A DNA stretch of 64,000 nt. It comes from Bacillota bacterium (GTDB lineage: Bacteria > Bacillota > Clostridia > Christensenellales > CAG-917). A model generated the notes under the pieces. That model made no database searches and was not told the origin of the DNA. It saw only the letters and a program-made list of their open reading frames with translations. Position 1 is the stretch's first letter. Each line of letters starts with the position of its first letter. This document shows positions 15,319 through 33,329 of this stretch, piece by piece. Location of the stretch: assembly GCA_023665365.1 (NCBI GenBank), contig JAMPEA010000006.1, positions 5,336-69,335 of the forward strand, read 5' to 3'. The translations under genes and the position numbers were made by a program.

Positions 15319-15700
15319 AGCTGTGCGTCGTGTACTCTAAAATATATAGCCCACCCCTTCCGACTTCGCGGTTTGCAAGGCAATCCCGCTCGTTCGCTTT
15401 GGCTACAAACAATCCACTGGATTGTTTGCTTAACGCGTCGCGCCCTTTGGGCTTTCCATTTCACTTTTTATAGCGCGCGCGTTTCGGGGTCCCCACAAAA
15501 TGTCCCTATTTTGTGGGGTATAGTATCGTCCACTCGACGCTTACAGCGCGAGATTATGCCACTCGTTCGCGGAAATTAAAACAACAATTTTCCGCTCACT
15601 TGTACTCATTCTGGCACTTGGCACTCCCTTCCTCCGCGCCCTGCGCGTCGCGTTCTAAACGTCGTAACAACTTTGCGTCGTGCTCACCCTCACTCAAACT
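15319..15700 (-). ncRNA. Family F structured element, copy 1 (candidate ncRNA or non-autonomous mobile element)
   Basis: Blocks shared with 32047-32470 (46 nt with 1 mismatch; 35 nt identical); covarying hairpin 15569-15595; carries nested family B (15486-15519) and an AAACAATCCACTGGATTGTTT palindrome (15407-15427). Confidence 0.55.
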
Positions 15701-15709
15701 TTAAACCTC

Positions 15710-15896
15710 AAAAGCTCGCGTAAAACTCTGCAATTTAGATACAGTACGCGAAAGGAGCGATTTTATCTTTTTTCAAACCTATAAAAAACTTGCATAAGCG
15801 CGATAAATTATAAATATAAAAGCTCGCGTAAGCGCGATATTTAGATGAAGAACGCGAAAGAGGCGTTTGTTAGCTGTCTCAAATCGCAAAAATTAT
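15710..15896 (+). repeat. Array of truncated family A left arms
   Basis: AAAGCTCGCGTAA...ATTTAGAT...CGCGAAAG at ~15711 and ~15819, a degenerate unit at ~15785, then the full element at 15897. Confidence 0.8.
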
Positions 15897-16043
15897 AAAA
15901 AGCTCGCGTAAACCCTGTAATTTAGATGAGATGCGCGAAAAAGCCCCGTTTCAAGTCGCCTAGTGTACTAACGTACACGACGACGAAGAAACGGGGCTTT
16001 GACAAAGCATATCGCTAAATTACAGGGTTTACGCGAGCTTTTT
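15897..16043. repeat. Family A hairpin element (complete copy A2) overlapping the stop codon of the giant gene
   Basis: Perfect 29-bp outer inverted repeat (15897-15925 / 16015-16043); inner stem AAGCCCCGTTTC/GAAACGGGGCTT; apical GTGTAC/GTACAC. Confidence 0.9.
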
Positions 16044-19000
16044 GAGTTTCGACTTGCGCAACACAAACGCCACCACCGTCCACACAACCGCGATTGCAAC
16101 CAAACTTGCGCCGACGGCAATCAAGATGATTTGCCATAGCGGCATAACGTTTGCTGTGAACTCGACGAATACGAGCGCGCCGAGGTAGTCGGTGGTATAG
16201 GTAATCTTTCCGTCGGCCACGGTGTAGCCTTCAAGGAGTTTGAGCCCGCCGTCTGCGGTGACGGTGTAGATTGCCTTGTCTTTCAAATCGCCGACGGTCT
16301 CGGGGACGGCGACGCTTACTTCAACACTTCCGCCGTTGAGCGTGACGGGCGTATCGTCGCAGTAGATTTCAAGTTTGACGATGGATGAGAGTTTGGCTTG
16401 GTTGTTGATATGCGGCATATACTCGTTGACGTCGCTCCAAAGCCCCAAATCCGTGCCGCTGCCCTTATCCTGCGTAATCTCTTTTGCGACGAGCCTATTT
16501 GCGACGATATTCGAGCCGACGTTGATGCTCGCGTCGGAGGCTTCGACGTTCTTGGTGGTGAGCACGAGTACGCCCTGTGCGCCCACGAGCTTATAGTTGT
16601 TTTCGTCGAGGTCGCCCTTTACAATCTTGATTGAGAAGGGGTATCTGCCTGCGGATGTGATTTCCTTATCGAAGGAAAGCACGGTCTGAGATTTGGGCAG
16701 TTGCAACGCCGCGTCCAATCCCGACATATTTATGATGTCATATGCGATTTCATAGCTCGTCTTAGCGCTGTCGTACTCGGCGGTCAAGGTCTTGACGGAG
16801 GTATTTGGGACTTCCGTATAGCCGACGTTTGAAATAATCACGTCCACAGTAGCCGTCAAAATCTTGTAGGTCACGGCGACCGTATCCGTCGCATAGTTGG
16901 GATAATCGTCCGCGAAGCTACTGTTAAGCTCGATTGTCACGCGATAAGTGCCGGCGTTGCGCATCTCGTCAACGGCTTCGTAGTCTTTGCCGCGCAGGAC
17001 GGCGTAAGAGATATTCACGTGATTTGCGGACAAATCGCAGACGGAGCTAATCATCTTGTTTACGCCCTCGCCGCCGACTTCGTAGGCATAGGGCTTGCCA
17101 TCGTAGTATTTGGAAGTCGTCACAGCCGAGAGTTGCGCGTTCGCTCTTGCAACGAAGATAGAAACTTCGTCGCCGCTAATCCAGAGATTGCAGTATCCGC
17201 GCGGGTCGCCCTCGTCGATTTTGATTGCTCTCCTGACGACGACGTGTCCGACGTACGCGCTGTCGGAAGCGTTTATGACTTCGACGGCTTCGTCGGCGTT
17301 GCCCAAGCCTATTTCGTCGCCCGCGGCGAGCGCGCCGAGAATGAGATTTTTCACTTGGTTGCTGCCGTCGTAGGTGAAGTTGAACGCATTGTTTTCAGCG
17401 CCGCGCAAGGTCAAGCCCGCCATGTCGGGGAGTTTGATTTCAAGCGTGGACGCGGCGGATTTGAACGGATACATTGCGCCGCTTTCGTCGCCCGCGACAG
17501 CGTAGGTCGTCATGACGTTGCCGTCTGCGACCTCGAAGCCCGTGCCGAGAATGACGTTGTAGTTTGAAGATGCATAGTCCGCGTTTTCGGGAGCGAACAC
17601 GCGAGCCGCGTAGATTTCGTCATCGCCGAGCCCGACGTTGATGCCGTCGCCTTTGCTTATAAGCGCGTATTTGTAGGCGGATTGATAGGTGTTGAGGTCA
17701 ACGATTTCGTCGGCATTTTCCGCGCCGAGCATAATCCACTCGCCCGTTGTGAGATTGAGTACGCCCCATCTGACTTCGGGCAGTACGCCTACGAAAGTAT
17801 TGTGCGCGTTTTCGCCTGCCGCGAAGCCCTCGCCGCCGTCCTTATTGAGGTAGAACAGTTCCACGGTCGGGTCGATGTCGCCGTAGGTCTTGGAGTAGTT
17901 TTTGCCTATCGTCAAAGTGCCCGTAGTCGTGACGTAGAGGTCCTTTTGAGCGACGGTGAGAACGCTGTTGCCCTCGGTATTCGTCTCGCTGTACTTGGGC
18001 TGGAACACGAAGTTATCAATCGCGGTGACGGCGAGGTTGTACGTCAGCGAACTTTCGCCCGCTTTGGGGACGGGGTTTTCAAAGGTGACGTTCACTGTGG
18101 GCAACGAGGATACGGACAGTCTTATATAGTATTTATCCAAATCGTTTTGGTTCACTTCGCCGTCGTACTTGTTAAAGCCGTTGAGCGTTTCGCCGTCCTT
18201 GACGATGACGTACATGCTTGCCGCAAAGTCCTTTTTATAATCGGCGAATTTAAAGCCCATCATATCTTCGAACTGTTCGAGCGCCAAGTAGAGTTGTCCC
18301 TCCCACTCGGTCAACAGATACAAGCCGTCGGAATTGGCTTCACTTGTGTTGTTGCCGTGCGCCAAGTAGGTGACGTCGCCGACAATTTTGTTGAGCGCCG
18401 TGCCGTACTCGACGTTGCCGTCGTTGAGGATAGCGTCGATAGGACGTCTTATAATTTCGCCCTTGTGCCTTGCCGGAGTGATATTGTCGTCTATGCTGTA
18501 ATTGAGATAGTCTTTGCTGGTTTCATTGTTTTCGTCGGCAGGACCGATTCCGCCGGGAGTAAACTCAACGTAGTTTGCATAAGTGGAGGAGTTTTCGTAT
18601 TTTGCAACGACTCTGACTACGCTTACGTCGTCGCCGGGGATTACGCCTACGACTCCGCCCTCTATATAGCTGTAATCAACGTCCTCTACGCCGTAGAAGT
18701 ACGTCGTTCCGTCGTACATTTTGGTAAACGCGTCTTCGTTTATCACGTCGATAGCGTCCGAGGAAATGGACAACCCTTTCTGGTTGATTTTGCCGTAGCC
18801 GTTGACGTAGGTCATAGCCGCGGGGAGCGATTTGATGACCTCGGCATCGCTATCGTCATAACCGTCGTATGCGGAATATATCGCGTAGACCTCGCCCACG
18901 TCTTCGAGCGCGTATCTGCCTGCGACCGCGCCCGCCGCGAACGCATTAGCTATTGCGACCTTGTTGTTGTCGTTGATTGCGATATATTTGTCCGCCGTCG

Positions 19001-22000
19001 GGAGCGCGTAGTAGCAATAATCCACGTTATAGTAATTTCCCTCATCGTCCTGCGGCGGGACTTCGCCGTAGTGAAGCACGCCCTCAAAATCGACGTATGC
19101 CAGATAGTCGCCCAAGCCCAAATAGTTGCCGTCGGCATCCTTATATTTTCCGTTATCGTCGGGGGCAATATATTTATCGGTTGTGATAGCAAGCACGTAG
19201 TTGACGATGCGGCTGCTCGTATATGTGCCGAGCTCGGGGTTGAACACAGTGCCCTCTTTGCCGACGACCTGCTCGCCGTCGATGGCGACGTTTTTATCGA
19301 TATAGTAGGCGGTTTTGTCGTAAACCACTACGTCGTATCCGCCGCGCGAGTCCATGCCGATCATCGTTTCTGTTTTCAGCTCGAACTTGACATTGTTGCT
19401 TGCGCCCTCTATCAACGCTTTGCCGTTGTACTCTTTTTCGCCCAAATCGACGGTGAAGCCGATAGGTCTTGGGAGAATGTTTGCGATGCGTGTTCTTTCT
19501 GTCGCGGACAGGAAGTAGTTGTTGAGCAAGTGCTCGTGACCGACCTCTGCGACAAGCTCGAACTTATCGATTGTGACGCGCAGATTCGTACCCACGTTTG
19601 ACCCATTAAACGTGCCGATGGCTTTGATAGAGAGGTACTTTGCCTGCTCCTGCCCATCGTCCTCGATGATGCCGGAGTTTTTAAGGGTAATCTTGACGTC
19701 GGCGGTGTTGTAGCCGTCGTAGACCTTATCCTTGATGACTATATTGTTGTCAAGGACTTTGACTTCCTTGCGGCTGATTGTAAGAACGTCGAACAGCTCG
19801 TAGTCATTTACTTTGTTTTCCTCGCCGATTTCGACGGTGACGTAGCTTCCGTCAACGGTCATACTGTACATGACGTAGTTTCCAAGGTCCACGCCCTCCG
19901 CGAGGAGCTTGACCCCGCGCACGATGACGTCGCGCTTGATGAGATTGCCGTTGTTCTCGTCGATGAGGACGTTTGCATTTTCAACGCCGTCCTTGGAGAG
20001 GAAATATTCGATATCGCCTTCGTTTGTGATTTTTTCAAGCTCGTCCATGAGGTCGAACGTATAGTTTTCGGCGATGAACTCGTAGGTATATTCGTGCCCG
20101 CGGGACGGTTCGACTTTCGCCTTGCCGTTGTACTCTCTGTCCTTAAAGACGACGTTGGGGATGAGTTTCGCCTTGTTTACGGTGACTTTTAACGCGTTGT
20201 CGCCCGAGTAGTAGGCGTTGAGCGCCTCTAAGTCGAGCTTGTAGTTGTCGCTGCTGACGTAAGACTCGTCGGTGATTTCGACGGAATGGTCAATGCCCGC
20301 GTTGACGTTGCCGTCGTTGATTTTAGTGAAGATATTGACGCTTACGATATTGACGTCCTCGTCGGCGAGCGCGCCGTGAGCGAGGGTGATTTCGGTACGT
20401 TTCACGTCCGCTTTCGAGGTGTAATCTTGCGCGACGGGTTTAATTGACACGAAGTCGTCCGCGCCGAGTATCTTTTGCGTGATAGAGGCGGCGAGGTCCT
20501 TGATATTGATGCGCACGCCCTCGTTTTCGATGATGGTGATTTGGATAGTCTCGTCGTAGTACGCGTCGGTATCCTTAATTTCGATACTGCCCTCCTCCTT
20601 GATGCCGGGGAAGTCGAAGAAAAGCGTAATCTCGACGTAGTAGCTATTCACGTCGGCTTTCGGGAATGTCGTGCCGCTGATGAGGTGCGAGGCTGACGTA
20701 CCCCAGAGGCGATACAGCATAGTAGAGCCGCCGTTCGCGTCGGAGCGGTTTTTGATTTGGATATTTTGCGCGTAGATGCCCGTGCCGCCGTCGTAGACCT
20801 TGGACACTGAGAAGTCCGACTTATAAATTGCGATTGCGCCCATGGAAATCGTGATGCGAGCGGATTTTTCGTAGGGCTTGTTGTTGAGGTAGTAGATGAC
20901 GACCTTGACGTTAACGTTTTGGCTGTTGAAGTCGAGTTTAGTAGAGTCGGTGATGAGCGTATCGCCGTTCCACAGCTCGTTTTGGGGGTCGTCGCTCGGG
21001 AGGTTGCTGTCGTTGACGATAGTGCCGAGGCGGTAGTTGTTTGCCGACGAACCTTCGAGGCGGAGATTTGTGAAGATAATGCCTACGTTGGTAGGTTCGC
21101 TCATCGAGCCTACGCCGGTATACACCGCGTCGAAAGCGAGGCGGAGGTCGTCGATAGCCCTTACGAGCTCGCTCGAAAGGTTATAAGCGAGGGTCGCGCC
21201 AAAGTCCACCGTATTTGTGTTGTCGAACGCCCTATTGACGCCGACGAAGTTTTGGACGCGGAGGTTGACGGCTTTCTGCTCGATGACGAATTTCTTTGCG
21301 GTATCGAGCAAAGCTCTGACGGTGAAGCCGCTGTTGGAGCTTGTAAACGCCGATCCGACCGCGAAGCTGTAATAGTCGCCGTTGCCGCCGATGATGAAGC
21401 CGTTGTTGTAAGTTGCGGGGTCGTACTGCTCGCCGAACGCGCGGAAAGCGCCGTTATTTGCGTAGCGACCTCTGACGTAAGCGCCGGAGATGGTGCTTCT
21501 TATATCCGTCCTGCTAATGCCTGCGTAGCTTTCGCCAATGGGGAAGTCCTTGCCGTTGATAGACACGATAACGTAGTCGAAATTAAATCCGCTATCGGAG
21601 TTGCCGTAGATTTTGCTATCGTCTCTATTCGTAGGTCTGATGACAATCTCGACGGGGTTTACTCTTATGGTAAACGTGCCGACGACGACTCTATTTTCGA
21701 GTTCCTCGTTGCCGTTGAGGAGTTTCGCGTCCGAGACGACGACGTTATAGCTGCCCGCGCCGAGGTATCCGTCGGCGAGGTTGACAGTCCACGAAACGTC
21801 TGTGAAATCGGGCATTGTGGGAAGCTCTGTACTCTCGACCAAATAGCCGTTGTCGTGCAGGTATTTATAGGTCAATTCTTTGCCTTGGATTTGTCCGTAG
21901 AGGAAGTCGAGGCTGACGCCGTCCCTTATATTGATGATGACAGCGTCGGGATTGCCGATATAGATATAGTAGATTGCGCCCTCGGCGAGGGTGATAATCA

Positions 22001-25000
22001 TCTCGTTTGTTTCGACGACGTTATTATTGCCGAGGACTATATCGTAGGCATATCCGCCGAAGTAGCCATCGTAGCCCGTGCTCCAAACGCCGTCGCCGCT
22101 TAGCATAAGCAGACCCGCGACCGCGGTTTTAATAGCGTCGGCAAAGGTCACGTCCTTGCTTTCGAGCGCGTAGTCGAGCGTAATGCCGCTTGTATCGGGA
22201 GCGTTATCGGGGTCATACTCGCTATTCAGTTTGACGAGGAACTGCCCGCTTGCGTCGATGCTGACCTGCCTCTTTTGGATTGTAAAGGTCTTGCCCTCGA
22301 CGGAGAGGACGATTTCGTAGTTATTGTTGTTTGTGGTAATGGCGCTTGACGCGTCGTAGGTATACGAGCCGACCGCCTCGCCCGCTGCGCGCGTAATTCT
22401 TCCGCCCGACGAGAAGATGAGGAGTTTATCTTTTTGCTCGATAAAATCATAGCCGTTGAGCAACACCTCTTTTTTGATGAGGTTTTCGATACTGCCTGTG
22501 CCGCCTACGGCGGTAAACCAACCGAACTGCTCCGTGCTTACCGAGAAGTAGATAGCGGGGTCGGAGTTGCCGAACTGTTTAGACTGATCTACTGCCGAGA
22601 CGTTGACCGTCCTTTGCTTGACAGTGTGCTTTATGCCCTCTTTGAACTCAACAGCGTAGTTTTCGCTTACACTCTGATCCTCGTGGCGCACGATAAAGAG
22701 CCTCTCTTGGATTATCTCGTAGATGGCGGCGTCTATTTCGAGAGAATTGCCCCAGTAGGCGGCGTCGAGTTTGAGACTGCCGTCAAGATATTCGCCCGTA
22801 AGCGGCGCTTCGTACTTGCCGTCCGCGTTCAATTCGCCGACAAATCCCGAGATTTCGAATTTGAGCTCGATTTCGTCGCCGTACACGCTTTCGGTTGCGA
22901 CAGGCGTGATTACCACAAGCCCTTGGAGAATTGAGAACTGTATCGGGACGTTGAAGCCTAATTTGTTATCCGTCTCAGACGGCGCAAGGACGAACGCCTC
23001 GTTATATTGTTTATTATTTTCATCAGTATATATATCATCTAAATATATACGAATATAATAAGTGCCGACGTCGATGGGAATTCCGTCAAACTTTACGCCG
23101 CTTTGCGAAGCGTTGTCGAAAGAGGAGTAGAACTCGAATTTGAGATATTCCTTTGCGGCTTCGTCGCTTAAATCCACGTAGTTAAGCATATTGAGCTTGG
23201 TCGCGTCGTAGAATTTGTTTGCGCTCGGAGTTTTTGAAACGATCTTTCTTACGGACGCGGTGAAATTGACGTTGTTTTTCGAGCCGTTCGCGTCAACAGG
23301 AAGCATGTCAAACTTATCGTTGTCGTCGAGCTTGTAAGTGATAGTATACTCGTTGCTGTTCTCGTCGTGCGTGACGGTGATTAGCGATGCGAAGCTGTCA
23401 TCCGCGATTGTAAACGTATTGCCGGACGTGTAATTGTAAAGCAAATTGGTCTCGCCTACGTTGAAGCGGAAAGGCGCGTAGCCGCTGTTGGGCGCGAAAG
23501 TGAGCGTGACGGTGTCGCCGCGCTTAGCCGCATCTATATCGGCAGAAAGAGTGCCGTTTTTGCCGAAGTTATTATCGCCTATAACCGCGTCGAGCATGGA
23601 TGCGCTTACTGTATACTCCGTCACGTCAATGAGCACGTAGTACGAATTGAGCTTTGACACGCGTCCCGACTGGTCCACCGACCAAACGTAGATGACGCGC
23701 ATACCCGCGCCGAGGCTCTGCTTAAACTCGACGTTGAGGTCTACGCTGGATTCCGTGAGTTCGTCGAGCGTGTAAATTTTGAGCGTATCGAGGTTAGTGC
23801 TGCTCAAAATCGAGTTTATATATTCCTCTGATTTATCGATCGCAAGCCCTTTATACGCCTTCTCCATATCAAAGACTGTGCCGAATTTTTCAAACGCCTC
23901 GACGGTATTAAGATATTTAACCGCTATGAAAACGCCCATTTTCGTATTAAAGGAGCTGTTTGCAACTACTGAATCATAGAACGAAGAAAGCGTGGCGCTT
24001 AGCGCATAATTATCAGTTTTCCACTTTTTGTTTGCCGCGTCGAACTTATAAAGCAGAGTATGCGTTTCCTCGTTGCTATTTGCCGCGAGGTAGCCGTCCG
24101 AGCCGTCGCTCAGCGTCGGAGTGTCGGGGTCAATGCGGTCGATGAAGATGCTTGCCTTTCCCTTGGATGCCGCTTTTTTTAAAGAGGGGTCGCCTTCCAT
24201 ATCCGCCACGCTCGCGTATGCGACCGTCGATATATCGAAAGCCGTCCTCCAAGCGACCGTCGGAAACGCGCCGCTTTCGTTGCCCTCGAATGTCACTACG
24301 ATAGTGCCGACGTAATTTTTGGCTGCGGCATAATACTCTACGCTATATGTGAAGTAAACGTCTGTTATATCAAGCTCTGTCACAACGTCCGACAAGGTAA
24401 TTTGCCCTGTTTCGTCATCTTTATTAGTGCCAATCAACCCGTTCCCTTGGTCGCTTTGGGTATAAAGTTTAAGATTGCCCTCTCTGTCGAAGCAAAGTAT
24501 ATATACCTTTTCGTTTTTATCCGTAAATTTGATTGTATTTCCCGAGAAGTTGATTGCCGAGACAGTGAACGTCAACGTAGTGTCGCCCATTGCCCAAACG
24601 CCGTCGGTATCCTTGGTTTGGAATATATTTTCCTGCGATATTGTTTCCGTATTGTCGGTTGTTTTGACCGTTGCATTGACCGAATAATCCGAGCAGTCGT
24701 CGTAGTCAACCTTGACGTAGTACGTGCTTGACGTTGAATTAAATCTGCCCGACGCGTCTATCATATAAAAGTCGAAACGATAGTAGCCTGCGCCTGTCGC
24801 GCTGACCCCCTGCGGACTGCTTACGTTATAATCGGTTGATTTATAACCCTTTGCCTTGCCTGTTTCAAAGTCGTATTCAAATTTCGAAAAAGAACCGTAG
24901 CCTAACGGCAACATTGTAGATTGACTCTTTATTGAGCTATACTTTGTATATCTGGAATTGGTCAAGCCGCTTATTGTGTCGGCGCGTTTAACGGTGTAGA

Positions 25001-26849
25001 ACCACACGTACGGCGCGTCGTCGTCGGCTTCGGGCACAGTGACGGTAGCAGAAAACTTCTTTTGCTTATACCATTTCGTATCTGTCCTTTGAAGCGCGGT
25101 AGTAGTGGTTGCCACGTATGAGTAATCGCCCGCAAGCGCTTCGAGCGTGGTGTCTCCTTTGACTTCTGACAAATCGATGCCGCTGAACGTTACGTTAGAC
25201 TCGCACGTGCCGTTGCCGTAGTCTTTGACCGTAATTTTCAATTCGACGTTTTGCAACGCGTATAGGTACACTCTCACACGCGCCCTGTTAAACTTGGCGA
25301 CCACAAGATATCCGACAACAGTATTCGCCACTCCGTTTACTTTTCCCTTAATTTCAACCCGATCGCACATATTGGTTGAATCCACCGAGTTTGTGTTAGA
25401 CGCAGTAATCTTTGTATCGTACATATACTGCGTAGTCGCAGATACAGTATCGCTTCCGATTGTGCCGGAAACCGCAATGGATTTTATGCCGGAAGCCACT
25501 TTTGTCGCAGTCTTAACGTCGGTATCCGCCGACCAGCCGTTAGTGGCGTCGTACGTATATCCGCCGATACCCATATACTTCCTTACGTCGGCGGTTGACG
25601 TGTACGTAGACGTGTTGAATGCGCCGCTTGACGCCGTGCCTGCCGAGTAGTTATAAGTATCGGCAAAATCTATCTCGGCGCTCTTGTAATACTTTGTAGA
25701 TACGCTATCTTTTCCGATAGTCTTTGTTAGCTCTTCCGACGTATATGAATTCAAAGTCCAGCCGGCAGACGGATTGCCCTTATCAGCAGCCTTTTCAAGG
25801 TCGCTTTGGAGGATTTGATAATAAACGGGCCAATTACTGTTGGGAGTCGGACGATATGGCGTATAAAGCTCGCACGCCTTCTTGGCGTCTACGTCGGTAG
25901 CATTGCCCGTAAGCTCGTGCGTCGTCTTGTCCTCGCCAAACACCGTGCTCATTTTGACAGGATGTCCGCCGTCCTTGATTGAAGTTGAAGCACTGTCTGC
26001 GGCATTGGATAATGAGAGCGTAAAGGTCAGACTGATGGATTCTATGTATATGTATCTATCATATCCTACACCCAAAGTAGACTTTTTCGGCCAATCCATG
26101 CCTATACATATCCCCAAAAACTTGTTTCCTGTGCTGAGCGTTGCGTCGCTTGCAGTATATGTCGTATTAGAAGTTTCCTTTTTAGTTGCGTCAGTTGTAT
26201 AGCCCCTAAGGGTAGTCTCTAATCCGCTTGACGCCGGCATTTTGTTAATGCCAAACGCTTTGTACCACACATTATTTGTATATCTATTTTCTACTACCTT
26301 AAATGAAAATTTTGCCTTGACAGTAATATTGCTATTGTCAATCATTTGGCACAAAAAGTCGCTTAACTCGTAAAACAAGAATAACTGAGCATCATATGGA
26401 TCGACAGCCTTTTCAACGCGAACCTGCCATTTGCCCTTTTGATTTTCTCTGCCTGTTAATTTTGGATTTCCGCCAGATTTAATAAGGACTTGGTTTGTTT
26501 GAGTCGGCGTAACTTCATTAAAATTGTCCGTAGCCGTCCAAGACGTTTTCGTAGTCGTCGTGCCGGGGAAGGTGCTTGTGAAATCTGTATATTTCAACGC
26601 GCCTTTTGCACCCGTGATGGTTTCGGGCACGCCGCCGAGAATAGTACCTTTATCTCCCGACGAATAGTTGCCGTCATTATTTTCCGCCGACGCAACGTTG
26701 TCTAAGCCGTTATTCGCAAAATCACCGTTATTCGTATTAGGCGCAAACGCCAACGTGAGACTGAATGCCAGCGCAAAACACATTGCTACGGCAACAAGCG
26801 CCATCACCTTGATTGCGCCCTTTTTCTTCCACGTCTTGCTTTCTCTCAT
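16029..26849 (-). CDS. Giant (3606 aa) cell-surface protein with MBG/YDG-type repeats and a C-terminal membrane anchor
   Basis: N-terminal signal (KKKGAIKVMALVAVAMCFALAFSLTLAFA); repeated KVYDG/KMYDG/KEYNG and KIYGNSD/KTYGDIDP motifs; C-terminal TM helix followed by RKSKLKK. Confidence 0.85.
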   Translation of the reverse strand: MRESKTWKKKGAIKVMALVAVAMCFALAFSLTLAFAPNTNNGDFANNGLDNVASAENNDGNYSSGDKGTILGGVPETITGAKGALKYTDFTSTFPGTTTTKTSWTATDNFNEVTPTQTNQVLIKSGGNPKLTGRENQKGKWQVRVEKAVDPYDAQLFLFYELSDFLCQMIDNSNITVKAKFSFKVVENRYTNNVWYKAFGINKMPASSGLETTLRGYTTDATKKETSNTTYTASDATLSTGNKFLGICIGMDWPKKSTLGVGYDRYIYIESISLTFTLSLSNAADSASTSIKDGGHPVKMSTVFGEDKTTHELTGNATDVDAKKACELYTPYRPTPNSNWPVYYQILQSDLEKAADKGNPSAGWTLNSYTSEELTKTIGKDSVSTKYYKSAEIDFADTYNYSAGTASSGAFNTSTYTSTADVRKYMGIGGYTYDATNGWSADTDVKTATKVASGIKSIAVSGTIGSDTVSATTQYMYDTKITASNTNSVDSTNMCDRVEIKGKVNGVANTVVGYLVVAKFNRARVRVYLYALQNVELKITVKDYGNGTCESNVTFSGIDLSEVKGDTTLEALAGDYSYVATTTTALQRTDTKWYKQKKFSATVTVPEADDDAPYVWFYTVKRADTISGLTNSRYTKYSSIKSQSTMLPLGYGSFSKFEYDFETGKAKGYKSTDYNVSSPQGVSATGAGYYRFDFYMIDASGRFNSTSSTYYVKVDYDDCSDYSVNATVKTTDNTETISQENIFQTKDTDGVWAMGDTTLTFTVSAINFSGNTIKFTDKNEKVYILCFDREGNLKLYTQSDQGNGLIGTNKDDETGQITLSDVVTELDITDVYFTYSVEYYAAAKNYVGTIVVTFEGNESGAFPTVAWRTAFDISTVAYASVADMEGDPSLKKAASKGKASIFIDRIDPDTPTLSDGSDGYLAANSNEETHTLLYKFDAANKKWKTDNYALSATLSSFYDSVVANSSFNTKMGVFIAVKYLNTVEAFEKFGTVFDMEKAYKGLAIDKSEEYINSILSSTNLDTLKIYTLDELTESSVDLNVEFKQSLGAGMRVIYVWSVDQSGRVSKLNSYYVLIDVTEYTVSASMLDAVIGDNNFGKNGTLSADIDAAKRGDTVTLTFAPNSGYAPFRFNVGETNLLYNYTSGNTFTIADDSFASLITVTHDENSNEYTITYKLDDNDKFDMLPVDANGSKNNVNFTASVRKIVSKTPSANKFYDATKLNMLNYVDLSDEAAKEYLKFEFYSSFDNASQSGVKFDGIPIDVGTYYIRIYLDDIYTDENNKQYNEAFVLAPSETDNKLGFNVPIQFSILQGLVVITPVATESVYGDEIELKFEISGFVGELNADGKYEAPLTGEYLDGSLKLDAAYWGNSLEIDAAIYEIIQERLFIVRHEDQSVSENYAVEFKEGIKHTVKQRTVNVSAVDQSKQFGNSDPAIYFSVSTEQFGWFTAVGGTGSIENLIKKEVLLNGYDFIEQKDKLLIFSSGGRITRAAGEAVGSYTYDASSAITTNNNNYEIVLSVEGKTFTIQKRQVSIDASGQFLVKLNSEYDPDNAPDTSGITLDYALESKDVTFADAIKTAVAGLLMLSGDGVWSTGYDGYFGGYAYDIVLGNNNVVETNEMIITLAEGAIYYIYIGNPDAVIINIRDGVSLDFLYGQIQGKELTYKYLHDNGYLVESTELPTMPDFTDVSWTVNLADGYLGAGSYNVVVSDAKLLNGNEELENRVVVGTFTIRVNPVEIVIRPTNRDDSKIYGNSDSGFNFDYVIVSINGKDFPIGESYAGISRTDIRSTISGAYVRGRYANNGAFRAFGEQYDPATYNNGFIIGGNGDYYSFAVGSAFTSSNSGFTVRALLDTAKKFVIEQKAVNLRVQNFVGVNRAFDNTNTVDFGATLAYNLSSELVRAIDDLRLAFDAVYTGVGSMSEPTNVGIIFTNLRLEGSSANNYRLGTIVNDSNLPSDDPQNELWNGDTLITDSTKLDFNSQNVNVKVVIYYLNNKPYEKSARITISMGAIAIYKSDFSVSKVYDGGTGIYAQNIQIKNRSDANGGSTMLYRLWGTSASHLISGTTFPKADVNSYYVEITLFFDFPGIKEEGSIEIKDTDAYYDETIQITIIENEGVRINIKDLAASITQKILGADDFVSIKPVAQDYTSKADVKRTEITLAHGALADEDVNIVSVNIFTKINDGNVNAGIDHSVEITDESYVSSDNYKLDLEALNAYYSGDNALKVTVNKAKLIPNVVFKDREYNGKAKVEPSRGHEYTYEFIAENYTFDLMDELEKITNEGDIEYFLSKDGVENANVLIDENNGNLIKRDVIVRGVKLLAEGVDLGNYVMYSMTVDGSYVTVEIGEENKVNDYELFDVLTISRKEVKVLDNNIVIKDKVYDGYNTADVKITLKNSGIIEDDGQEQAKYLSIKAIGTFNGSNVGTNLRVTIDKFELVAEVGHEHLLNNYFLSATERTRIANILPRPIGFTVDLGEKEYNGKALIEGASNNVKFELKTETMIGMDSRGGYDVVVYDKTAYYIDKNVAIDGEQVVGKEGTVFNPELGTYTSSRIVNYVLAITTDKYIAPDDNGKYKDADGNYLGLGDYLAYVDFEGVLHYGEVPPQDDEGNYYNVDYCYYALPTADKYIAINDNNKVAIANAFAAGAVAGRYALEDVGEVYAIYSAYDGYDDSDAEVIKSLPAAMTYVNGYGKINQKGLSISSDAIDVINEDAFTKMYDGTTYFYGVEDVDYSYIEGGVVGVIPGDDVSVVRVVAKYENSSTYANYVEFTPGGIGPADENNETSKDYLNYSIDDNITPARHKGEIIRRPIDAILNDGNVEYGTALNKIVGDVTYLAHGNNTSEANSDGLYLLTEWEGQLYLALEQFEDMMGFKFADYKKDFAASMYVIVKDGETLNGFNKYDGEVNQNDLDKYYIRLSVSSLPTVNVTFENPVPKAGESSLTYNLAVTAIDNFVFQPKYSETNTEGNSVLTVAQKDLYVTTTGTLTIGKNYSKTYGDIDPTVELFYLNKDGGEGFAAGENAHNTFVGVLPEVRWGVLNLTTGEWIMLGAENADEIVDLNTYQSAYKYALISKGDGINVGLGDDEIYAARVFAPENADYASSNYNVILGTGFEVADGNVMTTYAVAGDESGAMYPFKSAASTLEIKLPDMAGLTLRGAENNAFNFTYDGSNQVKNLILGALAAGDEIGLGNADEAVEVINASDSAYVGHVVVRRAIKIDEGDPRGYCNLWISGDEVSIFVARANAQLSAVTTSKYYDGKPYAYEVGGEGVNKMISSVCDLSANHVNISYAVLRGKDYEAVDEMRNAGTYRVTIELNSSFADDYPNYATDTVAVTYKILTATVDVIISNVGYTEVPNTSVKTLTAEYDSAKTSYEIAYDIINMSGLDAALQLPKSQTVLSFDKEITSAGRYPFSIKIVKGDLDENNYKLVGAQGVLVLTTKNVEASDASINVGSNIVANRLVAKEITQDKGSGTDLGLWSDVNEYMPHINNQAKLSSIVKLEIYCDDTPVTLNGGSVEVSVAVPETVGDLKDKAIYTVTADGGLKLLEGYTVADGKITYTTDYLGALVFVEFTANVMPLWQIILIAVGASLVAIAVVWTVVAFVLRKSKLKKLA

Positions 26850-27223: not shown

Positions 27224-27470
27224 ATCCACCTCATCACCGCTCCGCTTGCGCTCTGCGGAGCTTCCCCTCATAGGTGAAGCCATAGTATGGATATTGTGTC
27301 CCTCTGTCCGTTAGCCCTCCCCTTCGGGGTCCCCGATGACGAAGCAATCCAGAAAAGCCCTCCCATTGAGGGGAGGGTGTCACGCAGTGACGGGTGAGGT
27401 GTCAATTTAATCCACCTCATCACCGCTCCGCTTGCGCTCTGCGGAGCTTCCCCTCGTAGGTGAAGCCATA
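27224..27470. repeat. Family D REP-like cluster (61-nt direct repeat plus inverted partner)
   Basis: 27224-27284 and 27410-27470 are identical except for one base; between them lies CCCTCCCATTGAGGGAGGGTGTCACGCAGTGACGGGTGAGGTG, related to 61875-61960 and 63474-63512. Confidence 0.8.
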
Positions 27471-27516
27471 TTATTGATAGGGTCTATCGGCTACCGTTAA
27501 AATCAGACAAAGTCTG

Positions 27517-27619
27517 CGACTTAAAAATGCGTATTTACGCAACTTTGCGACATAAAGTCTTGACAATGCCACTAAACAGTAGTAAACTGTGTACGACTTA
27601 AAAATGCGTATTTACGCAA
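27517..27619 (+). promoter_or_regulatory. Promoter flanked by two identical 26-bp operator-like repeats
   Basis: CGACTTAAAAATGCGTATTTACGCAA at 27517-27542 and 27594-27619; TTGACA (27560), 17 bp, TAAACT (27583) between them. Confidence 0.7.
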
Positions 27620-27639
27620 TTTTAAAACATAGGTGTTTT

Positions 27640-28929
27640 ATGGTTATTGAAAGAGAACGCTATTTAAACAAGCTGATAAAGAAAAAGGAAAACGGGCTTA
27701 TCAAGATAATTACGGGCATACGCAGGTGCGGCAAATCGTATCTGCTGTTTGAGCTTTACAGAAAGTATTTGCTTGAAAGCGGCGTTGATGAAAATCATAT
27801 CATATCGCTTACGCTTGACGACGACGAAAATATAAAATACAGAAATCCGTTTGAGCTTGGCAAGTATATCCGAGGCGAAATCAAAGACGAAAAAACCTAT
27901 TACGTTTTTATAGACGAAATACAAAAGGTAGTGAACGTGCAAAACCCGTATATCGAAAACGCCGAGGACAAGGTGGGGTTTGTCGACGTGCTTTTGGGAC
28001 TTATGAAAATAAAGAACGTCGATTTGTACGTGACGGGCAGCAACTCGAAAATGCTTTCGTCGGACATATTGACGGAATTCCGTGGCAGAGGGGACGAGAT
28101 AAGGATAAATCCATTGAGCTACGCGGAGTTTTATTCGGCGACGGAGGATAAGCGGCACGCTTGGCGCGATTATTATACCTATGGCGGAATGCCGCTTGTG
28201 CTGTCTAAGGATACGCACGAGGAGAAAAGCAAGTATCTGAAAGACCTGTTTGCAAACACGTATTTTGCAGACGTGTTGGAGCGCCATAAGATAAACGACC
28301 CCACCGCGCTTGACGACCTGCTCAATATAGTTGCGTCGTCGATAGGGTCGCTCACGAACGCAACAAAGCTGTCCAAAACGTTTAAGAGCGTGAAAAACGT
28401 CAACATATCCCCCAAGACGATAGACGGCTATCTAAACGACTTTATAGACGCGTTTTTGCTTTATAAATCTTTCAAGTATGATATTAAAGGCAAAAAATAT
28501 ATAGAAACTCCGCTCAAATACTATTTTTCGGACGTGGGATTGCGCAACGCGTGGCTGAATTTCAGACAGCTTGAAGAAAATCATATTATGGAAAACGTCA
28601 TATACAACGAGCTCCGCGTGAGAGAGTTTGACGTTGACATCGGCGTTGTCGAATACAATTATAAGGAAAACGGCGCAAGTAAACGCAAGCAGTTGGAAGT
28701 GGATTTTGTCGCCAACAAGGGAAGCAAAAGATACTATATACAATCTGCACTGACGGTTGCAGACGAAAGCAAGCGTGCGCAGGAAACTAATTCGTTGAAA
28801 CGGATTGCCGATTCTTTCAAAAAAATAATAGTCGTAAAGGACGATATAGTGCCTTGGCACGACGAAAACGGCGTACTCTATATCGGCATTGAGGAATTTT
28901 TGCTTGATGAGAATGCAATGGATTTTTAG
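27640..28929 (+). CDS. AAA_14-type ATP-binding protein with DUF4143 domain and a C-terminal nuclease-like motif
   Basis: ITGIRRCGKS Walker A, FIDEIQ Walker B, VTGSNS, YGGMP, KYYFSDVGLRN, ENVIYNEL, EVDFV...YIQ. Start ATG 27640 after an AGGTG RBS. Confidence 0.9.
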   Translation: MVIERERYLNKLIKKKENGLIKIITGIRRCGKSYLLFELYRKYLLESGVDENHIISLTLDDDENIKYRNPFELGKYIRGEIKDEKTYYVFIDEIQKVVNVQNPYIENAEDKVGFVDVLLGLMKIKNVDLYVTGSNSKMLSSDILTEFRGRGDEIRINPLSYAEFYSATEDKRHAWRDYYTYGGMPLVLSKDTHEEKSKYLKDLFANTYFADVLERHKINDPTALDDLLNIVASSIGSLTNATKLSKTFKSVKNVNISPKTIDGYLNDFIDAFLLYKSFKYDIKGKKYIETPLKYYFSDVGLRNAWLNFRQLEENHIMENVIYNELRVREFDVDIGVVEYNYKENGASKRKQLEVDFVANKGSKRYYIQSALTVADESKRAQETNSLKRIADSFKKIIVVKDDIVPWHDENGVLYIGIEEFLLDENAMDF

Positions 28930-28950: not shown

Positions 28951-29253
28951 AAGTAAAAATGCGCTATTTGGCGCACTGCTTCGTTAGACGAGCACGCGAG
29001 CAACCCAACGTACAAACCAAACGCAACTTAAAAACACGATATTTTGCGTCAGACAAAACAGTTAGTTTGTAAAAACGCGATATTGAGATGAGTGACGCGA
29101 AAGTGCCGCCTGAATTACAAGCCTAACGCACACACTTTACATAAGTAAAAACGCGATATTTACGTTAAACAAAGTAATTAGCTAGTAAAAACGCCACTCT
29201 TTCACGCCAATTCTCTGGATTGCTTCGCCAATAAATTAGCTCGCAATGACGAC
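28951..29253 (+). repeat. Array of truncated family A arms sharing (AA)GTAAAAACGCGATATT, with a family C piece
   Basis: Units at ~28951 (opposite arm), 29028, 29069, 29143 and 29184; family C at 29211-29251. Confidence 0.8.
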
Positions 29254-29381
29254 GTAAAAACGCGATATTTGGATGCAGTACGCGAAAGGGGCGATTTTTT
29301 ATCTCGCCTAACGTACAAGTCGTACGTGACGAGTAAAAAATCGCCCCTGACAAAGTAATGCGCCAAATAGCGCGTTTTTAC
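29254..29381. repeat. Family A hairpin element (complete copy A4) overlapping the pckG stop
   Basis: 19-bp outer inverted repeat with 1 mismatch (29254-29272 / 29363-29381); inner GGGGCGATTTTTT/AAAAAATCGCCCC; apical ACGTAC/GTACGT. Confidence 0.9.
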
Positions 29382-31439: not shown

Positions 31440-31982
31440 ATGTCAAACGATTTGATGTTAGCTAAAACGAATAAGCTCGACAGCAAGGAACAAAAACTTG
31501 TCATTCTTTTCGTGTTCGACAAAATGTCCATTCCGCTATCCGAGGCGACCGTGCTCGATATGTGCACCTCAGACAACAACTGGCTCACCTACATGGAGTG
31601 CAAGCAGTACCTCGCCGAGCTTCTCGACACAAACCTCATCTACCGCGTGCCAAAGGCGAATACGCTCAATCTAACGCAGGACGGCGTTTCCTGCCTAAGT
31701 CTGTTTTATATGCGCATCCCCACGTCCATACGCGACGAAATCGCCGCCTACGTGCGCGAAAACCGCATGCGTTTCAGAAAAAAACAGGAGTATTTTTGCG
31801 ACTACTCCAAAAACGCCGACGGCACCTATACAGTAGTCATGCGCATCGACAACAATACGGGCGCGCTCATGGAGCTTAAAATGGTAGTCTCAAACCGCCA
31901 GCGCGCTATGTATATATACAAAAATTGGCTGGATAAGGCGGCTGGGGTTTATACGATGCTCCAAGAAAACCTCGTAGAGTAA
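31440..31982 (+). CDS. DUF4364 family winged-helix protein
   Basis: KLVILF...IPLS...NNWLTYME..QYLAEL..LI...LTQDG pattern. Start probably ATG 31440. Confidence 0.75.
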   Translation: MSNDLMLAKTNKLDSKEQKLVILFVFDKMSIPLSEATVLDMCTSDNNWLTYMECKQYLAELLDTNLIYRVPKANTLNLTQDGVSCLSLFYMRIPTSIRDEIAAYVRENRMRFRKKQEYFCDYSKNADGTYTVVMRIDNNTGALMELKMVVSNRQRAMYIYKNWLDKAAGVYTMLQENLVE

Positions 31983-32037
31983 AACGTTATAATTTGCGTT
32001 GATACTGCGTTAGGAGCGCTCATATTGAGCGCTCCTA
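31980..32037 (+). repeat. Family A gene-proximal half arm starting at the stop codon, closed by a short perfect hairpin (likely terminator)
   Basis: TAAAACGTTATAATTTGCGTTGATACTGCGTTA resembles the reverse complement of 32628-32660; then TAGGAGCGCTCA-TAT-TGAGCGCTCCTA. Confidence 0.7.
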
Positions 32038-32046
32038 AATTATTTT

Positions 32047-32470
32047 TTCGTCGTACACTCTAAATAAAAAACCCACCCCTTCCCTGCGGGCTTTCCCCTC
32101 CCACTCAAACTTAGACGGGTGCAGTAGCTCCCTCTTTGCTTATTTAAGTGTTCGTCGTTCGCGGGATGGGAAGTCGGCGCGCGCACGCCTGTTATCGTCC
32201 GCTCGACGCTTACAGCGCGAGATTATGCCACTCGTTCGCAGACCAAAAACAACACGGTCTGCTCACTTGTACTCGCAGTAGAGGTGCGACGCGATTGAGC
32301 CTTTGGCTAACAATCGCTACACCCCAACTGCGTCTGGTGCTTGGCACTCCCTTCCTCCGCGCCCTGCGCGTCGCACTCCGAACACAGTGTGCGTCGCGTA
32401 ACACTCTATCAAACCGACGTTATTCTAAACTGCGTAACAGCTGTGCGTCGTGTATGCCAGCTCTCAAACT
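32047..32470 (-). ncRNA. Family F structured element, copy 2
   Basis: Same conserved blocks as 15319-15700 with different inserted hairpins; G-U pairs fit the minus strand; ends AGCCCGC-loop-GTGGGTT-TTTT. Confidence 0.55.
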
Positions 32471-32479
32471 CTCAGTCTC

Positions 32480-32660
32480 AAAACCTTGTAATTTAGATGA
32501 TAGGCGCGAAAAAGCGCTCAAACTTAAAGCTCGTAAAACCTCGCAATTTGCGTTCAGACAAGGAAAAGCCCTGTTGCAGACAAGCCAAGTGTACTAAACT
32601 GTACACGACTTGTCGGCAACAGGGTTTTGACGCAGTATCAACACAAATTGCGAGGTTTTA
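32480..32660. repeat. Family A element (complete copy A3, 32534-32660) at the nitroreductase stop, plus a truncated arm at 32480-32516
   Basis: Perfect 17-bp outer inverted repeat; CAAGGAAA / TGACGCAG loop; inner GCCCTGTTGC/GCAACAGGGT; apical GTGTAC/GTACAC. Confidence 0.9.
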
Positions 32661-33329
32661 ACAGAATTGCCAGGAGAAATTGTCCCTCCCCGCGCCCAAC
32701 TCAAAGTGATACTTGACTATGCCGAGGTCAACCTTGACGAAAAACCCCTTGCCTGCTTTTGCGAATACGTTTCTGCCGTTCACGGAAAATTTGAATTTCT
32801 GCTGATTTAGCGCAGTGGGCGCAAGCAGGGCGCACTTGACCCCGTTTACAAACCATTCGGGGACGTTTTGCACGTCACTTGTGACGTCGTCGAATTTTTT
32901 GCTTTTATGCGGCTTGCCCTGCGTTTCGCCGTAGCCTATCGCAATCACAAGCGCGAGCTTTTCCTCCTTGCTGATTTCAAACGCGCCCTTCACCTTTGAA
33001 AACGTCGCGCCAACCCAACAGGTGTTAAGCCCGAGCGTCTGCGCCAGCAGTACGATTTTCTCGCCGTAGTAGCCGCATTTTTCATATAGGTCGCGAGTAT
33101 TCTTGCCGACGAGCGCGATATAGTTTTTCACTCCGCTAAACTTGCCGTAGCGCGCCTTGATACTGTCAAACGCCTTAGGCTCGTCAAGCACGAGCTGTAT
33201 GTTCAATCCGCTTCGCTTATTGCACTCGTCGATACACTCCAAAAGGCGCGACTTTACTTCGCCGTCTATGGGTTTATCCAAGTATCTGCGCACGGAGTGA
33301 CGCGCGCTTACAGCCTCTAAAATATCCAT
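32658..33329 (-). CDS. Nitroreductase family protein
   Basis: RHSVRRY, GLNTCWVG, IAIGYG, LAPTALNQQ and DLGIVKYHF motifs. Confidence 0.9.
   Translation of the reverse strand: MDILEAVSARHSVRRYLDKPIDGEVKSRLLECIDECNKRSGLNIQLVLDEPKAFDSIKARYGKFSGVKNYIALVGKNTRDLYEKCGYYGEKIVLLAQTLGLNTCWVGATFSKVKGAFEISKEEKLALVIAIGYGETQGKPHKSKKFDDVTSDVQNVPEWFVNGVKCALLAPTALNQQKFKFSVNGRNVFAKAGKGFFVKVDLGIVKYHFELGAGRDNFSWQFC

Follow-up and report, generated by a model that had tools for sequence, protein, structure and literature searches.

Family F, a large structured intergenic repeat in one family of small-genome gut Firmicutes

The 64,000-nt stretch of Bacillota DNA analysed here (the window) carries two copies of a repeat, family F, each of them next to palindromic repeats of a second family, A. 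This raises the question of what kind of element F is, and whether it works together with A. The two F copies that a sequence-only reading of the window had noted were recovered by self-BLAST of positions 31981-32700 and by a minus-strand pairwise alignment with a common core. The genome from which the window comes (G000) has 1.59 Mb in 58 contigs. The features used below are the following, in window positions unless stated otherwise.

32047..32470, minus strand: F copy 2, made of linker units, 5' domain, optional hairpin, central domain, 3' domain and 3' motif
32424..32464, minus strand: outer linker unit of F copy 2, hairpin AGCTG/CAGCT with the conserved loop ..ACACGACG.., then GTTACGCAGTTTAGAA
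32377..32423, minus strand: inner (second) linker unit of F copy 2, TAACGTCGGTT TGATAGAGTG TTACGCGACGCAC ACTGTGTTCGGAG
32335..32376, minus strand: 5' domain of F copy 2, P1 hairpin (CGCGC AGG GCGCG) and GGAGTGCCAAGCACC segment; P1 covaries across species
32276..32334, minus strand: optional hairpin of about 59 nt in F copy 2, GCAGTTGGGGTGTAGCGATTG...CAATCGCGTCGCACCTCTACTGC, absent from copy 1
32223..32272, minus strand: central domain of F copy 2, GTACAAGTGAGC-hairpin-GCGAACGAGTGGCATAA, with the highest conservation in family F
32217..32333 (G000:C55:37552-37668): match of covariance model R1 in F copy 2
32202..32221, minus strand: optional small hairpin of F copy 2, CTCGCGCT GTA AGCGTCGAG
32059..32201, minus strand: 3' domain of F copy 2, type 3a0, with C-run TCCCATCCC, G-runs GGGAGGGG and GGGGTGGG flanking the hairpin CCC GCA GGG, and end TTTATTTAGAG
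32047..32058, minus strand: 3' flanking motif of F copy 2, GTGTACGACGAA, a partial repeat of the linker loop
32465..32533, minus strand: TTTGAG-type linker and truncated A arm
32534..32660, strandless: full-length family A palindrome (about 127 nt) directly at the stop of a 223-aa gene; self-complementary, 75% over 130 nt
31983..32046, strandless: A-like arm and terminator hairpin (32010-32038) behind a 184-aa gene
15319..15716 (start and end approximate), minus strand: F copy 1, without the 59-nt hairpin, with another 3' module and a nested small hairpin repeat
G000:C55:20883-21001 (genome coordinates): covariance model match in F copy 1
15717..16046, strandless: truncated A arms and complete A palindrome upstream of F copy 1, abutting the stop of a 3606-aa ORF

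Modular anatomy of F

F is about 300-450 nt long and its anatomy reads on the minus strand of the window. It starts with one or two linker units, which are hairpins of about 30-55 nt with GTTACGAAGTTTAGAA after the loop. By eye, the stem of the linker hairpin varies between copies with matching changes on both sides, and the loop is conserved. We found 39 occurrences of the linker unit in G000, about 30 of them directly before an F core. In some relatives the 5' domain with P1 is replaced by an unrelated, longer 5' domain. The central domain is near-invariant outside its hairpin, while the 3' domain comes in alternative forms (classes 3a/3a0, 3b and 3c, and forms with a GCGACGCGTTAA module), all of them rich in a C-run and two G-runs. 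F ends in ..ATTTAGAG, and in 18 of the 21 G000 copies the end ..TTTAGAG is followed by TACACGACG.., a partial repeat of the linker. The linker repeats at the two ends of F are direct and not inverted, and by eye the flanking repeats differ within each copy.

Two inserts had been proposed in copy 2, and they fared differently. The pairwise alignment bears out the stem-closed insert of about 59 nt at 32276-32334, where copy 1 has ATT (plus strand); it sits between CCAGA and GAGTAC, with three bases in copy 1 at that point. Of the 21 full-length copies compared from G000, 11 have a long hairpin here, three have a short stub and seven have no insert at all, so the hairpin is a recurrent optional module. 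In relatives, the TAGCGATTG..CAATCGCG module of this hairpin sits elsewhere within F. The second proposed insert, at 32092-32178, is instead the ordinary 3' domain of most G000 copies (16 sequences were classed so). Copy 1 is the odd one, with a GCGACGCGTTAA-type 3' module, a type to which 16 sequences belong. The small optional hairpin is present in some G000 copies only, with the stem variants CGCT/AGCG and CACTC/GAGTG recognised by eye.

Truncated F copies are many in G000, and a deletion derivative on contig C2 keeps only P1 and the 3' end. Relatives also carry F-linker-F tandems and arrays in which the 3' end plus linker is repeated, and locus L024 has two further matches. The ORFs that overlap F are short and interrupted by the variable inserts.

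Covarying helices and the sense strand

The minus strand of F copy 2 folds with -167.6 kcal/mol (z -4.34; none of 100 shuffles as good) and the plus strand with -141.5 kcal/mol (z -3.96; one of 100 shuffles as good). RNAalifold on the G000 copies alone gave a poor consensus (-42.5 in the sense direction against -29.9 in the reverse), and a covariation scan allowing G-U pairs was swamped by T/G-rich columns. For the 5'/central domain (alignment A2, 48 non-redundant sequences), RNAalifold predicted 18 pairs, 10 of which show compensatory change, and 98.0% of the cells are paired, against 21-47% after the partners have been shifted by 1-3 columns (slid-partner control). Double-sided changes are seen in 129 cells versus 39.7 in shuffles, and the covariation score is 0.408 versus 0.162, a value reached by none of 500 shuffles; this shuffle control overstates the significance because the sequences are mutually related. 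The slid-partner control, together with the many independent pair types, is the stronger argument for the fold. Six of the seven pairs in the central hairpin (83-89/106-112) covary, with 85:110 being GC in 22 sequences, CG in 20 and AU in six, and in P1 the pair 23:37 is CG in 25, UA in 10 and GC in seven, and 19:41 is CG in 33 and GC in nine.

In the 3' domain the covariation comes from the sister classes 3b and 3c rather than from class 3a0, to which copy 2 belongs. In class 3b (alignment A3, 35 sequences), a long-range helix at 75-90/143-156 is 100% paired, with 81:153 as CG in 30 sequences and UA in five, and a pair added by hand, 90:143, as GC in 26 and AU in nine; over the whole structure 90.8% of cells are paired, against 39-59% for slid partners. 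Class 3c (alignment A4, 23 sequences) gives a nested four-helix fold of 24 pairs, six of them compensatory. The fold of F is therefore under selection, its helices being kept by compensatory change. A further hairpin proposed after the central domain, AAGAG/CTCTT, was discarded, as only 67.8% of cells pair in that register.

The sequence-only reading had taken G-U pairs in copy 2 as a sign of a minus-strand RNA with a terminator-like 3' end. The strand is upheld by other G-U pairs found in the covariation alignments: 86:147 is GU in 28 sequences and AU in seven (A3), and UG occupies 121:146 in 22 of 23 and 122:145 in 23 of 23 sequences (A4). These pairs become A-C mismatches on the other strand, so the sense of F is the minus strand of the window. 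The terminator-like end did not prove general, since the T run is found only in copy 2; scans of the minus strand at F copy 2 predicted neither a sigma-70-like promoter nor an intrinsic terminator. Additionally, conserved G-A/A-G juxtapositions lie beside P1 and the 3' helix with covarying pairs alongside (by eye), a pattern that suggests K-turn-like motifs.

Distribution, insertion sites and neighbours

In G000, 41 nhmmer matches merged into 39 F loci, the F core anchor occurs 35 times, and covariance model R1, built on the 5'/central part of F, finds 31 copies. The copies inside one genome are 75-95% alike. F makes up roughly 1% of the 1.6 Mb genome, and in three DNA runs containing the window the depth of the F bins is about 10-15 times that of unique sequence. 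Short-read assemblies of these organisms break at F and its companion repeats, with 16 of the 39 copies beside a contig end; these repeats should be annotated.

When 24 further genomes of the genus were searched by BLAST, 17 had pieces of F, whereas 16 genomes of other families had none. With R1, F was found in 46 of the 52 genomes searched from the genus (33 of the 35 that are of good quality), with copy numbers from 0 to at least 69 per genome, the highest counts being lower bounds because 69 was the number of candidates scored. One relative assembled as a single contig has 54 dispersed copies. In an even sample of the order, R1 matched four of 151 genomes, all from the same family, and none of 145 genomes in 41 other families. 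An exact-pattern scan for the central motif returned at least 106 stretches among genome contigs, the listed ones bearing mostly titles of Christensenella sp. and of uncultured Clostridiales or Clostridia MAGs, and the same scan found none among viral contigs. F is limited to one family of small-genome gut Firmicutes.

F is intergenic. With crude ORF calls in G000, the nearest upstream ORF of at least 150 aa is co-oriented with F in 16 of 20 cases and the nearest downstream one in 16 of 25; with small ORFs counted as well, the upstream ORF shares the orientation of F in 18 cases and opposes it in 12, and the downstream ORF does so in 19 and 13 cases, respectively. In the genome assembled as a single contig, 7 copies lie on the plus and 17 on the minus strand below about 780 kb, and 20 on the plus and 10 on the minus strand above it, a split point picked after seeing the list of copies; this flip fits a bias tied to gene or replication direction. 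Immediately on the 5' side of F there is usually a terminator-like hairpin or a different repeat. A chain of S, T and P modules precedes about 9-13 F copies in G000, and unique sequence precedes some others. In relatives, F is preceded by GC-rich terminator-like hairpins or by a Gut-1-like hairpin array (50.3 and 39 bits), and at locus L055 by a sub-threshold T-box-like match (76 bits, gathering score 93).

Orthologous sites differ between genomes in whether they carry F. The convergent pair of the 184-aa and 223-aa genes that flanks F copy 2 is kept in three relatives. In the closest (G023, where the flanking gene is 93% identical in amino acids) no intergenic DNA separates the two genes, and there are about 140 nt of other sequence in G022 and about 590 nt in G041; neither F nor A is found at this locus in any of the three. 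Three further F loci of G000 (on C25, on C33 and at C44:55417) are without F in both G023 and G022. G041 is empty at the first two and has at the third about 413 nt between the flanks, similar in length to F, with no F match listed. Four G000 loci are thus F-free at the orthologous site in the closest relative, and for this reason we regard the copies as recent insertions. The more distant G055 carries a diverged F at the same place as C44:55417, directly after the orthologous stop codon; presence in G000 and G055, and not in the closer G023, requires that F either inserted there more than once, independently, or was lost precisely. The intergenic DNA at the empty sites is too diverged to give insertion boundaries or duplications at the level of single bases. 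By eye, no terminal inverted repeats or target-site duplications were seen at the F copies, the latter being unreadable in empty sites so diverged.

No protein gene accompanies F. We compared 20 loci of three relatives, each with 3-11 kb around F; those that are not orthologous resemble each other in F alone, so no ORF travels with it. Profile searches of G000 found no TnpB (PF07282), no IS200-type Y1 transposase (PF01797) and no IS110 recombinase (PF01548); five tyrosine and three serine recombinases were matched. Above the cut-off, TnpB occurs in one, Y1 in 12 and reverse transcriptase (RT) in 14 of the 52 genomes of the genus. Five genomes with 54-69 F copies (G045, G015, G017, G012 and G051) have none of the three, G054 with 68 copies has RT only, and G192 has Y1 but no F. 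TnpB, Y1 transposase and RT do not track F copy number in the genus. The only RT of G000 lies on another contig, one that ends in an F fragment; we take it from its motifs and an Avd-like neighbour to be DGR-like, and with RT not tracking F across the genus it was set aside as the mobiliser.

Known RNA families gave no match either. Rfam 15 returned nothing for the window at gathering scores, chance-level matches only for the regions of both F copies at E up to 10, and nothing on F itself in eight loci of relatives at E up to 1. At these same limits no known self-cleaving ribozyme (hammerhead, twister, pistol, hatchet, HDV-like or similar) was matched in F. No description of F in Christensenella-like bacteria was found in the literature searched.

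The sequence-only reading noted that both window loci have the same minus-strand order (gene stop, complete A, truncated A arms, TTTGAG-type linker, F), which is correct, and at copy 2 the 3' motif of F continues directly into the A-like arm beside the 184-aa gene. It went on to suggest that F and A may be parts of one composite system, an idea that independence of F from A elsewhere would speak against. Counted over G000, most F copies are independent of A: an A lies within 350 nt upstream of only eight of 35 F copies, leaving 27 without A, and 34 of the 42 A loci have no F nearby. Since most F and A loci stand apart, their linkage is a frequent arrangement and not a rule. The association is directional all the same, with eight A loci upstream in the sense of F and none within 350 nt downstream. 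Read from the sequences, the loop ACACGACG of the linker hairpin is complementary to CGTCGTGT at the centre of A, and the A centre, CGTCGTGTAC-loop-GTACAC, is the complement of both the linker loop and the 3' flank of F. A is a separate palindromic repeat that has a common niche and the GTACACGACG motif with F and is not its obligate partner. The common motif could reflect a shared target, one recognising enzyme, or descent of one repeat from the other. Two identities for A itself were rejected. An integron attC site was considered since A follows gene stops, but the 42 loci are dispersed over many contigs and the arms have no R' core (by eye); a weak Rfam match to AaHKsRNA41 (26.3 bits, gathering score 97) was taken as chance.

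Known systems and possible readings of F

Multicopy structured sequences in intergenic regions have been collected as mobile/repeat sequence candidates (MRSC) in the surveys of the Breaker laboratory, which count 250 of them in 50 genomes, so that the kind is common, and report frequent linkage to genes for a transposase, integrase, nuclease or helicase (PMC11109978). F resembles MRSC and mosaic repeats of the BOX/BIME type in being multicopy, intergenic, modular and of predicted structure. Compared with the MRSC described there, it has no association with a transposase, integrase, nuclease or RT, is much larger (about 300-450 nt) and has exchangeable domains, a long-range multi-domain fold and linker redundancy. 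As far as the literature searched shows, F is of an already known kind and is itself new, unusually large and modular, with no Rfam family.

Among better characterised systems, the HEARO RNA (the omega RNA of IscB) and the omega RNA of TnpB (IS200/IS605) are large, intricate RNAs at the end of a mobile element, present in dozens of copies in some genomes, orphans included, and HEARO proved to be the guide RNA of IscB. F is like them in size, fold complexity and abundance. It differs from HEARO in having no Rfam HEARO match and no common ORF beside it in 20 loci, and from TnpB omega RNA and PATE elements in that TnpB is present in one and Y1 in 12 of 52 genomes, the high-copy genomes not among them. 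F also has no locus-specific guide beyond its end, its 3' flank being the conserved TACACGACG in 18 of 21 copies, and it is unlike the bridge RNA of IS110 because the IS110 DEDD recombinase (PF01548) is missing from G000.

BOX of Streptococcus pneumoniae, BIME/REP of enterobacteria and bcr of the Bacillus cereus group are intergenic, modular and hairpin-rich repeats, often co-transcribed with their neighbours, whose units are simple hairpins of about 35-200 nt. F is likewise chained with small repeats (the A, P, T and S modules); it departs from them by its long-range multi-helix fold and strongly conserved unpaired segments, and G000 has no RAYT-type Y1 transposase. Class C group II introns are structured RNAs that insert just after terminator hairpins in the orientation of the gene; unlike them, F has no Rfam group II match, is too short and encodes no RT, a gene found in 14 of the 52 genomes. 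OLE, ROOL and GOLLD are large non-coding RNAs of Firmicutes, of which the biochemical function is not known, encoded by single- or low-copy genes with fixed neighbours. F shares with them a large RNA-like fold, and is instead dispersed, high-copy and polymorphic in position.

F is thus a multicopy repeat of one bacterial family with helices kept by compensatory change, present or absent at orthologous sites and accompanied by no protein gene. We give a probability of about 55% to the reading that it is a non-autonomous mobile repeat, of which the conserved single-strand fold is copied or recognised, with a putative enzyme as carrier. According to this proposal, the strand of F that corresponds to the minus strand of the window would fold into the conserved multi-domain structure, and F would spread via a single-stranded intermediate, more likely RNA than DNA in view of how large the fold is and of its G-U and G-A content. 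An enzyme acting in trans would recognise the fold. New copies would land behind genes in their orientation, beside terminator-like hairpins, sites at which F may be tolerated and probably co-transcribed. The host family is little studied and the usual mobilising enzymes do not track F there; partnerless structured multicopy RNAs led to new biology before, as with HEARO.

The alternative that survives best, though unlikely, is that F is an RNA module serving the host, either a cis-acting UTR element or a multicopy protein-binding RNA, and that its spread is secondary, by recombination. Such a module might act on the transcript upstream by stabilising or terminating it, or might use the K-turn-like G-A motifs to titrate an RNA-binding protein. 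The co-orientation of the upstream gene (16 of 20 in the tally) and the position of F, directly behind a stop codon or with a T-box-like match on one side and a start codon on the other, would suit it, as would a fold kept across species with exchangeable peripheral domains, and the persistence of F, with no transposase, in 46 of the 52 genomes; that a 300-nt fold has been conserved for so long could just as well mean host function. Nevertheless, the flanking genes are functionally unrelated, and the closest relative is without F at the same loci with no replacement. Copy number runs from 0 to at least 69 within one genus, copies are 75-95% alike within a genome as after a recent burst, and truncated and internally deleted copies exist. 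As a UTR module F would be exceptionally elaborate and would act on dozens of operons.

The sequence-only reading had offered, as an example, F as a structural or guide RNA and A as target or product. In a sharper form, F would be a guide or scaffold RNA of an RNA-guided system and its ACACGACG loop would pair with CGTCGTGT at the centre of A, which we find decidedly improbable. The complementarity of linker loop and A centre, the eight upstream A loci with none within 350 nt downstream, and a size, complexity and copy number reminiscent of HEARO and omega RNAs fit it. Against this, 27 of 35 F copies stand without A and 34 of 42 A loci without F, G000 has no TnpB- or IS110-type gene, Rfam yields no HEARO match, and nothing like a variable guide segment can be seen: the sequence that follows F is conserved and not locus-specific.

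Propagation through a circular or rolling-circle intermediate, driven by a ribozyme or a recombinase, would explain why some copies exceed one unit, with the linker on both sides of F, and why tandem F-linker-F arrays occur. The linker is indeed found before and partly after the F core, and relatives carry both F-linker-F tandems and 3'-end-plus-linker arrays; however, the known self-cleaving ribozyme families remain unmatched at E up to 10 (up to 1 in relatives) and most high-copy genomes are without RT. We consider this route very unlikely. Finally, that F is inert, left over from old duplications and decaying while nothing selects for its structure, is scarcely credible despite the many truncated copies, being contradicted already by compensatory changes above both controls, by orthologous sites empty in the nearest relative and by F in 46 of 52 genomes.

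Beside the preferred reading of a non-autonomous repeat carried by a trans-acting enzyme, we consider a more speculative and rather improbable candidate, in which F is the RNA (about 300 nt) of an undescribed self-propagating system that multiplies without any element-encoded protein. Its partner might be a host enzyme common to the whole bacterial family, or else the RNA's own catalysis. If F movement does depend on a host factor or on the RNA itself, this would be a new route of genome colonisation. The tandem G-A motifs of K-turn type and the exchangeable domains fit such a system, and the conserved ACACGACG loop would select hairpin targets such as the A centre. Terminal redundancy and the tandem F-linker-F arrays are possible traces of a circular or rolling-circle intermediate. 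Furthermore, the C-run flanked by two G-runs in the 3' domain could form a purine triple helix or a switch.

Repeat modules nested in or chained to F

F, the structured repeat without an ORF, carries or adjoins several other repeats, and one of them is nested in the first of the two window copies:

window ~15482-15520: hairpin repeat of ~35 nt, CCCCACAAAAT..ATTTTGTGGGG type, nested in F copy 1

BLAST found dozens of copies of this hairpin repeat genome-wide, on many contigs of G000 (the genome holding the window), and some of them lie inside other F copies, at a GCGTC site. Upstream of about 9-13 of the F copies of G000 (contigs C1, C14, C19, C22, C44, C54, C57, C9 and C42), other repeat modules form a conserved chain, made up of a GC hairpin, a module of the form GTGACAC..GTGTCGGGTG and one of ~110 nt with the layout TAAGGGGG..CCCCCTTA..TAAGGGGG. 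The middle module is missing from some of these chains, exactly between two TAAGGGGG repeats.

Gut-1 RNA is a hairpin array from gut metagenomes, for which we know of no function. An Rfam search of the relatives' F loci matched it on the same strand as F and just upstream of it:

L074:594-675, minus strand: Gut-1 RNA (RF01706) match, 50.3 bits against a gathering score of 50
L062:703-826, minus strand: Gut-1 RNA (RF01706) match, 39 bits against a gathering score of 50

Gut-1 RNA was not detected in the G000 loci tested. It appears to be a further module of the F repeat mosaic.

Reduced and diverged F copies and their neighbors

G000:C2, reverse strand, ~26.6 kb from its end: miniature F
G000:C44:55417-55769 and G055:C8 ~23930-24280: diverged F copies in orthologous place
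L055:51-293, plus strand: T-box-like leader match, 76 bits, below the gathering score of 93

The miniature F retains a linker unit and the P1 hairpin as well as the 3' end (TTTTAGAT TACACGATG), all in between being deleted. The two diverged copies, in G000 and the more distant relative G055, follow one and the same orthologous gene, each directly after its stop codon, and the last codons of this gene resemble the F linker loop in both genomes (TTAGACGATTGA and TTACACGATTGA, respectively); the closer relative G023 has no F after this gene. In L055, a relative's locus, the T-box-like match adjoins F directly upstream, so that F has the riboswitch terminator on one side and the start codon of the gene downstream on the other.

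Reverse transcriptase on contig C38, and features of the window

G000:C38:1757-2851, minus strand: reverse transcriptase, 364 aa
G000:C38:1204-1782, minus strand: ORF, 192 aa, downstream of the reverse transcriptase
window 16029-26849, minus strand: ORF, 3606 aa

The reverse transcriptase is the sole one in the genome, and its contig has an F fragment at its end. Since the 192-aa ORF looks Avd-like, both genes probably constitute a diversity-generating retroelement.

Within the window, the 3606-aa ORF ends directly at the palindromic repeat A upstream of F copy 1. At ~27240-27876, contig depth is elevated by a factor of 5 to 9, and near 29151 (region ~29070-29350) by a factor of about 3; contigs break, and their joints lead to the A/F region. 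The window thus holds further repeat copies.
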